Source: a virus (taxonomy: Duplodnaviria; Heunggongvirae; Uroviricota; Caudoviricetes). Taken from it: a DNA stretch of 58,536 nucleotides. The notes beneath the pieces were generated by a model, which worked only from the letters and a program-made list of their open reading frames with translations, did no database searches and was not told where the DNA came from. Every line of letters begins with the position of its first letter. Within the stretch, counting starts at the first letter, position 1. Where the stretch lies: positions 1-58,536 of IMG/VR virus record IMGVR_UViG_3300001199_000003; one strand, 5' to 3'. Made by a program: the position numbers and the translations under genes. Below are positions 2,666-5,538 of the stretch, piece by piece.

Positions 2666-2694
2666 TTGACACGCATAGTCATGTATGGCATAAT
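2666..2694 (+). promoter_or_regulatory. sigma70-type early promoter
   Basis: TTGACA-17-(TGn)CATAAT, preceded by AT-rich TTAAAATAATAG. Confidence 0.8.
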
Positions 2695-3926: not shown

Positions 3927-3935
3927 GGAGTGAGT

Positions 3936-4190
3936 ATGAAAAAAACTAACGAAGAACTTATTTTAGTTGGCCTCAAAGCTTATAAGAATGAATTAGATCG
4001 AAAGATAACTCAATGCTTTAAGGAATGGGCTAAACACTTTGAAGCTGATTATGTAAGCTTATCAGACTTAGAGTCTGCGATTAAAGACTTAGAGCAATAT
4101 AAAAATGAGTTATCCGAAGTTGTGGCCAAAATTCATGAGCTAGATCCGCCAACCGATCAAGGTTTTGCAGCCGACGATATACCATTTTAG
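3936..4190 (+). CDS. coiled-coil protein ending in an SSB-like acidic tip (GFAADDIPF)
   Basis: AAGGAG RBS; heptad-like helical body; last residues DDIPF match the bacterial SSB C-terminal motif. Confidence 0.75.
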   Translation: MKKTNEELILVGLKAYKNELDRKITQCFKEWAKHFEADYVSLSDLESAIKDLEQYKNELSEVVAKIHELDPPTDQGFAADDIPF

Positions 4191-4250: not shown

Positions 4251-4532
4251 ATGAAAGAGCAAAACGAAATGAACCAAACTAATGAGCAAGCCGAGATTCT
4301 TATTAAGCGGTATTCTAACCGCAAGCTATATGACACCGAATCAAGCCGATATACTACGTTGCCCGAAATTCAGGCAGCGGTTAAAAGTGGGCGCATCATT
4401 CGGGTCATTGATAACGTATCTAAAAAAGACATCACTAATAAAACGCTGCTCATGTCTTTGGTTGAGACCGAAGGGGAACGCGATGACCTATCAACTGCCG
4501 ATGTTATGGCATTAGTCAAGCGTGGTCTATAA
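4251..4532 (+). CDS. phaR: PhaR-type (PHB accumulation regulator N-terminal) DNA-binding protein
   Basis: IKRYSNRKLYDTESSRYTTL...I...V..G..IRVID..SKKDIT..TL matches the PHB_acc_N signature; AAAGGAG RBS before ATG 4251. Confidence 0.85.
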   Translation: MKEQNEMNQTNEQAEILIKRYSNRKLYDTESSRYTTLPEIQAAVKSGRIIRVIDNVSKKDITNKTLLMSLVETEGERDDLSTADVMALVKRGL

Positions 4533-4831
4533 TGAGAGTCATTGCATTGCTCATTCTTTTATTGCTCATTAGGCATCACGCTAACGCGTCTACTTTGGAG
4601 TGTTTCACGGATGAACCACGTCAATATAAGTTTGATCTAGGCGCTCAAAAAGTTGGCAGTTATCGAGTTGAGGTCAAGCATGAGACTGGTAAGCTTGCGG
4701 GCCTAACCTATGACTTTGTTATACGTGACGTTGCATCGCTTAAGGATTACGATGACTATCTAATCAAGCGCATGACCGTGGGCGTTCCATATAATATAAC
4801 TTACGCTTTGAGGTGTAAGATCCTGGAATGA
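4532..4831 (+). CDS. hypothetical secreted protein
   Basis: TAATG coupling; N-terminal signal peptide (A-N-A). Confidence 0.7.
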   Translation: MRVIALLILLLLIRHHANASTLECFTDEPRQYKFDLGAQKVGSYRVEVKHETGKLAGLTYDFVIRDVASLKDYDDYLIKRMTVGVPYNITYALRCKILE

Positions 4832-4911
4832 GGGAAATAATGAATTTAATTGCTGCAGTGTTTAATTTTATGATACGATGCGTCGAGATAGCTTTTAACA
4901 AGGGGCAAAAA

Positions 4912-5505
4912 ATGACTAAAAATATCTTTACAATCGTACTCGACACACTGCCTAATAAATTCCCGACTACTCCCGATCAAGATGCTTTCATTCTTAAATT
5001 GAGTGAGGTTTCAGGTGTTACAATAACTCAAGATAAGCCAACCGCTGCGCTTATTTTAGGGCCAAAAATGTTAACTGCAGGCGGTTGTTACGCAACTATC
5101 AACCCTGAAACTGAAGTGATCATTCTAAATGAAAACGCTAACAATGATTATTGGTATAGCACTATTTTTCATGAGCTAGCTCATGCAACTGGATCAAGTA
5201 AGCGTTTTAACCGCGTGGGTGTTGTAGCCTGCCAAACTAAGACTGACTATCATTTAGAGGAAATTATTGCCGAGTCAGTAGCTATGAGAGTTATGGAGTC
5301 AATGGGTTTAGCAACGGATGAAACACGCGCTAAATCTAATTCATATATTCAAAGCTATGAAAGACCGCTTATTATGTTTGGCGCTATGGTTGACGTGATG
5401 AAACTAGATTATGAGATTAGTAAGGCCGAGGCTTTAGTTATGGACTGGCTTAATAAAGCAGGTTTAAAAGCCGTCTCTCAAGGTGTTGAATTTAAAGCGG
5501 CTTAA
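4912..5505 (+). CDS. zincin-like metallopeptidase (MPTase / ArdC C-terminal-type domain)
   Basis: YSTIFHELAHATG (HExxH) ...RFNR... YHLEEIIAE; AGGGG RBS before ATG 4912. Confidence 0.8.
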   Translation: MTKNIFTIVLDTLPNKFPTTPDQDAFILKLSEVSGVTITQDKPTAALILGPKMLTAGGCYATINPETEVIILNENANNDYWYSTIFHELAHATGSSKRFNRVGVVACQTKTDYHLEEIIAESVAMRVMESMGLATDETRAKSNSYIQSYERPLIMFGAMVDVMKLDYEISKAEALVMDWLNKAGLKAVSQGVEFKAA

Positions 5506-5509
5506 GCTA

Positions 5510-5538
5510 TTGACTATAAGCGTTAAAGCGCGTATAAT
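5510..5538 (+). promoter_or_regulatory. sigma70-type early promoter
   Basis: TTGACT-17-TATAAT. Confidence 0.85.

Follow-up and report, generated by a model that had tools for sequence, protein, structure and literature searches.

Why should a phage encode a small protein that ends in the docking peptide of SSB (the bacterial protein that binds single-stranded DNA) and yet has no recognizable SSB fold? The question is raised by a gene located near the start of IMG/VR virus record IMGVR_UViG_3300001199_000003, within the 58,536-nucleotide stretch analysed here (hereinafter, the window), which constitutes the first 58.5 kb of this 170,618-bp record. The C-terminal peptide of bacterial SSB (SSB-Ct), which in Escherichia coli reads ...MDFDDDIPF, is the docking peptide that organises more than 12 enzymes of replication, repair and recombination; it is pursued as an antibiotic target, and small-molecule blockers of SSB interactions exist. 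The product of the phage gene, which we denote the tip protein, ends in GFAADDIPF (codons 4161-4187), and the end of its coding sequence reads ...DQGFAADDIPF-TAG, so that the residues D80-D81-I82-P83-F84 are followed directly by the stop codon and the motif occupies the free C-terminus. Among all open reading frames of at least 30 codons in the 170.6-kb genome, this gene alone ends in the pattern acidic-x-[ILVMF]-P-[FWY] or in IPF/LPF. The phage, with a G+C content of 41% over the whole record, encodes a tail sheath, a major head protein and a terminase and is thus a myovirus; its capsid protein shows 52% identity to the counterpart in Myxococcus phage Mx1. The gene comprises the following elements:

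3936..4190, plus strand: coding sequence of the tip protein, from ATG at 3936 to TAG at 4188-4190, 84 amino acids
3923..3928, plus strand: Shine-Dalgarno sequence AAGGAG, read directly, 7 nucleotides 5' of the ATG at 3936
3948..4040, plus strand: helix 1 (residues 5-35) predicted by AlphaFold2, with a conserved ELILxGL motif in which L8, G12 and L13 are invariant
4059..4142, plus strand: helix 2 (residues 42-69) predicted by AlphaFold2, antiparallel to helix 1, with E58, L59, I66 and L69 invariant
4143..4163, plus strand: short linker, the length of which varies in the family (residues 70-76, LDPPTDQG; P71 invariant), with a predicted local distance difference test score (pLDDT) of about 50-57
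4164..4187, plus strand: C-terminal tip FAADDIPF (residues 77-84), an exact match to the SSB tip of Bacteriovoracia

An in-frame GTG is present at 3930, but the ATG at 3936 is favoured as the start because the homologues of the protein begin likewise, with MK(T/K)...

The AlphaFold2 model, built from an alignment of seven sequences, consists of helix 5-35, helix 42-69 and a disordered segment 70-84, with a mean pLDDT of 82. The terminal residues 70-84 have no predicted secondary structure (mean pLDDT 51-57), which is the context expected of an accessible, disordered tip; the gap between the end of helix 2 and the tip is only 2-7 residues, so that the long disordered linker of the SSB type is missing. 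Searches of the protein against Pfam and PHROGs yielded only coiled-coil noise and no match to PF00436 or any other SSB family at E <= 1, and the phage genome, searched throughout in all six frames with PF00436, gave no match. Foldseek searches of the PDB and the ESM Atlas, together with a PDB sequence profile, retrieved just generic helical hairpins and coiled coils, which are uninformative on function; many of these hairpins form four-helix bundles. Because the model is a two-helix hairpin with a disordered tail, the tip protein lacks an OB fold, and because this test for the fold failed, it does not qualify as a member of the SSB family, although it does possess one feature of that family, namely, the conserved acidic C-terminal tip ending in (I/L)PF. 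No domain binding single-stranded DNA (ssDNA) was found upstream of the tip with Pfam, PHROGs or AlphaFold2, whereas the same test is positive in other ADDIPF-ending phage proteins, which contain PF00436, DUF669, SBB_T7 or DUF3127 domains. The preliminary description of the locus, made from the sequence alone, had reported an 84-residue helical protein without OB-fold features that ends in GFAADDIPF at 4161-4187, and the open reading frame, the Pfam and PHROGs searches and the AlphaFold2 model confirm each of these points; its "coiled-coil" label, like the oligomeric state that it proposed, has the predicted helical hairpin as its sole basis.

The net charge of the tip protein is -7, with a range of -2 to -7 in its family, so the charge is not conserved. 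Given this acidity and the lack of an OB fold, the protein is not expected to bind DNA. A DNA mimic of the Ocr or ArdA type, in which arrayed surface carboxylates imitate the DNA backbone, appears unlikely because the charge is modest and not conserved and because it is the tip that is conserved rather than an acidic surface. The protein might, in principle, be a minimal SSB with a new fold, in which the helices bind ssDNA and the tip recruits partners; indeed, several tip-bearing phage proteins of 81-109 amino acids are SSBs by PHROG assignment, and phage ssDNA-binding proteins without an OB fold exist, as reported for Drc (PMC7145618). Nevertheless, we consider this possibility highly improbable, given the negative net charge in all seven family members, the all-helical predicted structure without a basic or aromatic surface motif, the absence of similarity to any SSB family and the presence in the same phage of a gp32-type SSB that is described below.

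The family of the tip protein is small. When 1.84 billion representative proteins were searched exhaustively with phmmer, two true relatives emerged, and a profile search extended these to a family of seven (76-84 amino acids), in which the six homologues (76-79 amino acids) all come from related uncultured phages. Other searches returned no relative: the region matched none of 50,697 phage records by megablast, a word-indexed protein search recovered the query alone, and neither of two IMG/VR scans (protein and alignment) detected a homologue. The tblastn search against phages produced only matches with E = 5-8, including one in an Aeromonas phage that lies within a 489-residue protein and is due to chance.

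The pattern of conservation in this family is strikingly uneven. While the bodies of the proteins are 39-48% identical, ADDIPF is invariant in all seven and the final eight residues fit F[A/C]ADDIPF. The column identity, taken as a pairwise mean, amounts to 0.94 for the tail, 0.53 in the N-terminal half of helix 1, 0.50 in the C-terminal half of helix 2, 0.37 at the distal end of the hairpin and 0.21 in the linker, which is 2-4 residues shorter in the homologues; the distal end (residues 25-50) is the least conserved part of the hairpin and carries an indel. Across five loci, the codons of the tail vary synonymously (ATA/ATC, CCA/CCG/CCT, TTT/TTC, GCA/GCG), with the exception of the one position that is occupied by A or C, which indicates that it is the peptide rather than the DNA that is preserved. 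Thus, conservation of the terminal IPF among homologues, which had been suggested as a check on the significance of the motif, extends to the entire ADDIPF.

These observations bear directly on the most trivial explanation, under which the tail is a functionless relic, that is, the 3' end of a host ssb gene that was captured and fused to an unrelated open reading frame. Because the tail equals the host tip described below, such a capture is possible as the origin of the tail; a comparison of the 27-nucleotide tail with host genes (19-24 identical nucleotides of the 27) is uninformative in this respect. As an account of the present state of the gene, however, the relic is hardly credible and, in our view, nearly refuted, because seven diverged homologues hold the tail constant while the synonymous sites and the body drift, and because the reading frame, the Shine-Dalgarno sequence and the synteny are conserved as well.

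Whose SSB does the tail resemble? A scan of GTDB, with one genome per species, for AADDIPF followed by a stop codon yielded at least 80 loci. Among the 80 matches listed, 34 end in FAADDIPF, and all 34 belong to Bacteriovoracia, under the labels Bacteriovoracaceae, Bacteriovorax, Peredibacter, Halobacteriovoraceae or a former name of that group; in the other clades among the matches listed, P, I, A or T takes the place of the first phenylalanine of FAADDIPF. The FAADDIPF-ending loci encode 145-186 amino acids, except for two frames of 63 and 74 codons, and the four that were examined are canonical PF00436 SSBs (about 141 bits). Within this class, to which Peredibacter belongs, FAADDIPF-stop was detected in 57 of the 238 species genomes, and F-x-ADDIPF-stop, with any residue allowed at position -6, in 146 of them, x being always A or T; a control with the reversed pattern gave 0. 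The tail of the phage protein is therefore identical to the Bacteriovoracia SSB tip in eight of eight positions, and position -6 is the one variable site in both the bacterial and the phage tips (A or C in the phages). The F-C-ADDIPF variant of two phage homologues was found in no Bacteriovoracia genome, where the residue in question is A or T.

Together with two further signals, this match points to Bacteriovoracia, which are predatory bacteria, as the probable host of this uncultured 170-kb myovirus. The G+C content of 41% in the phage compares with 35-50% in the Bacteriovoracia loci. In addition, the phage encodes a transfer-messenger RNA (Rfam, 75 bits; L255:1180-1605, about 102.7-103.1 kb of the genome) that ARAGORN misses and the tag of which, read by eye, is GNVEEKMAA; the tags of three Bacteriovoracia are GNDYAMAA, GENQFAMAA and GEETFAMAA, with the glycine resume codon and the ...MAA end in common with the phage. 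We regard the likeness of the tags as only suggestive. The major capsid protein of the phage was not detected in the 238 Bacteriovoracia genomes searched, which is uninformative either way. To our knowledge, no large phage of Bacteriovoracia has been described. The match of the tail thus provides a host prediction for a 170-kb phage lineage that previously had none, and it suggests that SSB-tip matching may serve as a signal for host prediction.

The phage has an SSB of its own, encoded in the replication module at ~82-97 kb, together with a DnaE-type polymerase, a UvsX-like recombinase, a DnaB-like helicase and a primase:

L005:8087-9271 (genome 88087-89274), outside the window: gp32-type SSB, PHROG SSB E = 1.6e-6, Pfam gp32 24.7 bits

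Although the Pfam score of this gp32-like protein is just below the cut-off, the six best PDB matches of its AlphaFold2 model (pLDDT 82) are the cores of RB69 and T4 gp32, with probability 1.00. It ends in ...SDADFLKSLGL. Its family includes more than 270 homologues, and almost every one of the 120 listed has the ending ...MSD(A/D)(D/E)FLKSLGL. As the ...FLKSLGL ending is conserved among the homologues, this phage lineage evidently has an SSB tail of its own that is unlike the host tip. In its own right, we note that this tail is unlike both the T4 and the bacterial codes, and that, in this phage, a predicted helix of about 54 residues (304-357) precedes it.

Tails of this kind suggest another explanation for the tip protein, namely, that its tip is a private phage tail that binds a phage-encoded partner, the likeness to the host tip being a case of convergence. 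Aromatic-ended phage SSB tails that bind phage replisome proteins are established, as with T7 gp2.5 (PMC10359462). An identity of eight residues out of eight to the tip of a single bacterial class, however, goes well past a generic acidic-aromatic tail, and the lineage already has a different conserved SSB tail, so we find this explanation improbable.

If the tip addresses host proteins, which ones could these be? We searched for candidate partners in five Bacteriovoracia genomes (G001-G005) whose SSB ends in FAADDIPF, with the following results:

PriA: 5 of 5 genomes
RecJ: 5 of 5 genomes
RecG: 4 of 5 genomes
RecO: 4 of 5 genomes
RecQ: 3 of 5 genomes

Neither Pol III chi (PF04364) nor the ExoI C-terminal domain (PF08411) was found in any of the five genomes, despite the canonical SSB tip, and with zero of five in each case, both are probably unavailable as partners in the probable host. 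Among the partners that the preliminary description had named, PriA, RecQ and RecO therefore stand as candidates, whereas ExoI and Pol III chi do not.

In our assessment, the tip is quite likely to dock into the SSB-Ct pockets of SSB-interacting proteins of the host. What the protein accomplishes by docking is less certain, and the possibility that we tentatively place first, at a likelihood somewhat short of even, is competition: imitating the host SSB-Ct on its own, the protein would be a decoy or inhibitor. In the following scheme, the binding, competition, timing, oligomeric state and targets of the tip protein are what we infer. The small acidic two-helix hairpin would be a scaffold that presents FAADDIPF-COOH 2-7 residues past its end. 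Expressed early, from a host-type promoter, the protein would fill the SSB-Ct pockets of host proteins that maintain the genome (PriA, RecJ, RecG, RecO and RecQ being present in the probable host) and would uncouple them from SSB-coated DNA, so that host replication restart and repair would be crippled, while the ssDNA and the ends of the phage would be spared SSB-guided attack by helicases and nucleases. Given the very short distance from the tip to the conserved hairpin base, a docked partner would touch that base, and such contacts with the scaffold could turn a weak generic motif into one that is tight or selective for a single target; since the gp32-type SSB of the phage has a different conserved tail, the phage itself would escape.

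The principal alternative is that the protein is an adaptor, with the hairpin binding a phage component (for example, the gp32-type SSB, the DnaB-like helicase, the DnaE polymerase or the PhaR-type protein encoded next to the tip gene) and the tip bringing a host SSB partner to the phage DNA (PriA, for instance, to load a helicase at D-loops, or RecO/RecG), so that the tip that is absent from the phage SSB would be supplied in trans. The phage replisome is mosaic and looks incomplete, in that searches of the genome detected neither a beta clamp nor chi nor a PF00436 SSB; the phage SSB lacks the host-type tip; and the base of the hairpin is conserved, all of which speaks for an adaptor. The distal half of the hairpin, in contrast, is poorly conserved and contains the indel, and the tip gene, which is separated from the replication module by ~80 kb, shares its block with a protease of the anti-restriction type.

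The distribution of the tip also speaks against an adaptor. The tip family has only seven members, compared to more than 270 for the SSB that an adaptor would serve. A close relative of the phage (G239, a 104-kb contig that is 65% complete) has the same SSB (P0035), a syntenic early region and a PhaR-type gene that is 66% identical, yet it contains no tip gene in the syntenic region and no open reading frame ending in D-x-P-F-stop anywhere in the 104 kb. The tip is missing also in the closest isolate, Myxococcus phage Mx1, and no relocated tip was detected in five IMG/VR relatives (G239 and four more distant ones). The single tip match among the IMG/VR relatives was a 13-codon frame attributable to chance and was rejected. 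Given this rarity and the absence from relatives, the tip gene is an accessory gene of one subclade and no constant component of the replisome.

A scan of IMG/VR for ADDIPF followed by a stop codon, which gave at least 80 loci, places the tip in a broader context. Among the matches listed, ADDIPF occurs on canonical SSBs, DUF669, T7-gp2.5-like, DUF3127 and Pam3_Gp34-like proteins and very small PHROG SSBs, as well as on proteins that are not SSBs, namely, an SF2 helicase (two loci; ResIII, Helicase_C and a zinc ribbon), an AAA_5/CbbQ-type ATPase (two loci) and an Erf-like annealing protein:

L017:925-2661, minus strand: ADDIPF-ending protein other than an SSB
L038:3224-4930, plus strand: likewise
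L088:224-1612, plus strand: likewise
L059: likewise
L068:8931-9677, minus strand: likewise

Given this range of phage proteins, the SSB tip is a portable module in phages. The presence of ADDIPF on proteins that work on DNA (the SF2 helicase, the Erf-like protein and SSB folds) suggests a recruiting tag and so speaks for the adaptor. Taking both sides into account, we consider the adaptor rather unlikely but, among the alternatives to the decoy, the one with an appreciable probability.

The decoy, by comparison, fits the accessory distribution of the gene, its distance from the replication module, the separate tail of the phage SSB and the lack of a second functional domain, and it is further supported by the location among small genes beside an ArdC-like protease of the anti-restriction type; even so, we advance it only as a tentative preference that falls a little below an even chance. 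Several considerations weigh against it. Single SSB-Ct interactions are weak, so a decoy would have to be abundant or multivalent or make additional contacts; the SF2 helicase, the Erf-like protein and the SSB folds that bear the tip in other phages favour recruitment as its general use; the host assignment leans partly on the tail itself; and the early timing of the gene is suggested only by its position and a promoter-like site. Hence, the proposal that this protein is an SSB-tail mimic that sequesters or redirects host proteins stands with respect to mimicry, given the invariant ADDIPF, the eight-of-eight match to the tip of the host clade and the lack of an OB fold, and either sequestering or redirecting would agree with it. 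A role as a decoy for SSB-sensing defences, which the preliminary description also raised, is speculative.

How does the tip protein compare with known systems? Like the bacterial SSB-Ct, it ends in a disordered DDIPF-COOH, the last five residues being those of E. coli and the last eight those of Bacteriovoracia, and in both proteins the tip is under strong purifying selection. The bacterial SSB, however, consists of an OB fold and a linker of tens of residues, in contrast to the acidic helical hairpin and the 2-7-residue linker of the tip protein. The SSB-Ct docks many partners, and peptides or fragments that fill its pocket block these interactions (PMC5872125; PMC10018359). Synthetic SSB-Ct peptides and fragments (PMC5872125) have the same predicted action as the decoy, the occupation of the pocket; these are laboratory reagents, whereas the tip protein would be their natural counterpart, encoded by a virus and carried on a folded scaffold.

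Phage proteins that carry a copy of the host SSB tip, as the tip protein does, have been reported. Bas52_0087 combines two OB folds with FDDDIPF (bioRxiv 10.64898/2026.04.29.721553, 10.64898/2026.10.27.754916), and DUF669 proteins of prophages carry DDDIPF (PMC13687109); for both, the authors propose SSB C-terminal mimicry as a means to interface with host proteins. In those proteins, the OB or DUF669 domains bind ssDNA and the tip recruits partners to the DNA, whereas the tip protein has no such part, so that it can only fill the pockets of the partners or bridge them to another protein. The tails of T4 gp32 and T7 gp2.5 (PMC10359462) are likewise short, acidic phage tails that organise replication and repair partners, but these are located on the phage's own SSB and bind phage proteins, while the tip protein copies the host code; in the phage studied here, the role of those tails is filled by the gp32-type SSB with its ...SDADFLKSLGL ending. 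We found no paper on an SSB-tip mimic without an OB fold or a DNA-binding part, and the paper on Hna does not mention the tip. Mimicry of the host SSB tip by phage proteins is thus already known, and here it is reduced to the tip alone. Conceivably, although we would not yet give it an even chance, this is the first protein inhibitor of natural origin that acts on the bacterial SSB hub, with the exact host tip placed on a minimal, possibly multivalent helical scaffold.

Mimicry of short linear motifs is well known for viruses of eukaryotes. Should the decoy reading be correct, a phage would be using such mimicry against a bacterial hub protein, and phages would attack or hijack the SSB hub directly, beyond their use of SSBs of their own. 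The SSB-guided functions of the host in replication restart, recombination and nuclease action would be switched off, the tail of the phage SSB being different; a phage, then, could insulate its own SSB from such an attack by means of a different tail. Furthermore, the protein would offer a tool to switch off contacts between SSB and its partners in cells, on a 70-residue scaffold. As the protein has its final five residues in common with the tip of E. coli SSB, these predictions are testable in E. coli.

The gene belongs to a block of small genes on the plus strand, the other features of which are the following:

2666..2694, plus strand: sigma-70-like promoter candidate, TTGACA-17-CATAAT with TG, 11 of 12 matches, in an intergenic gap at the head of the block with the tip gene
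4251..4532, plus strand: stand-alone PhaR-type N-terminal DNA-binding domain (PHB_acc_N), Pfam E = 1.2e-20, 3' of the tip gene
4532-4831, plus strand: 99-residue protein that has a signal-peptide-like segment at its N-terminus, encoded between the gene of the PhaR type and that of the ArdC-like protease
4828..5505, plus strand: ArdC-like zincin metallopeptidase (MPTase-PolyVal, the ArdC C-terminal domain; Pfam/PHROGs), the final gene of the block

The next site as strong as the promoter candidate is at 5510-5538, beyond the block, and no copy of the phage's TGTGATATA promoter motif was found near the tip gene. The site at 2666..2694 is a candidate only because the total of promoter-like sites is not above that in shuffled sequences; from the place of the tip gene in the block behind this site, we infer that the gene may be expressed early.

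The gene order is shared by all homologous loci that are long enough, namely, the tip gene, in some cases a 66-residue gene, the PhaR-type gene, the gene for the protein with the signal-peptide-like segment and the ArdC-like protease gene. The PhaR-type gene is located 3' of the tip gene in every homologous locus of sufficient length (L003, L256, L257, L258), but the two are not strictly coupled because the 66-residue gene intervenes in some loci. The best PHROG of the ArdC-like protease is labelled "anti-restriction protein", and its 225-residue product gave no match to the N-terminal ssDNA-binding domain of the ArdC type. As a separate observation, the protein with the signal-peptide-like segment is kept (101 amino acids) at the same spot in L003, L256, L257 and L258.

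Two further observations concern ADDIPF at the ends of other proteins. The Pam3_Gp34-like proteins (PF23977, 204 bits), which consist of about 260 amino acids and for which Pfam gives no function, end in ...KGEGADDIPF in numerous viral contigs:

L025:4476-5258, plus strand: Pam3_Gp34-like protein ending in ADDIPF
L012, L028, L035, L041, L054, L057, L061, L074 and L089: likewise

On the bacterial side, chromosomal repair helicases of the UvrD/PcrA type (780-850 amino acids) from Rhodobacteraceae (Roseobacter group) end in ...AADDIPF:

L148:3330-5738, minus strand: UvrD/PcrA-type helicase ending in AADDIPF
L133:4052-6523, plus strand: likewise
L141, L152, L153, L179, L183, L194 and L197: likewise

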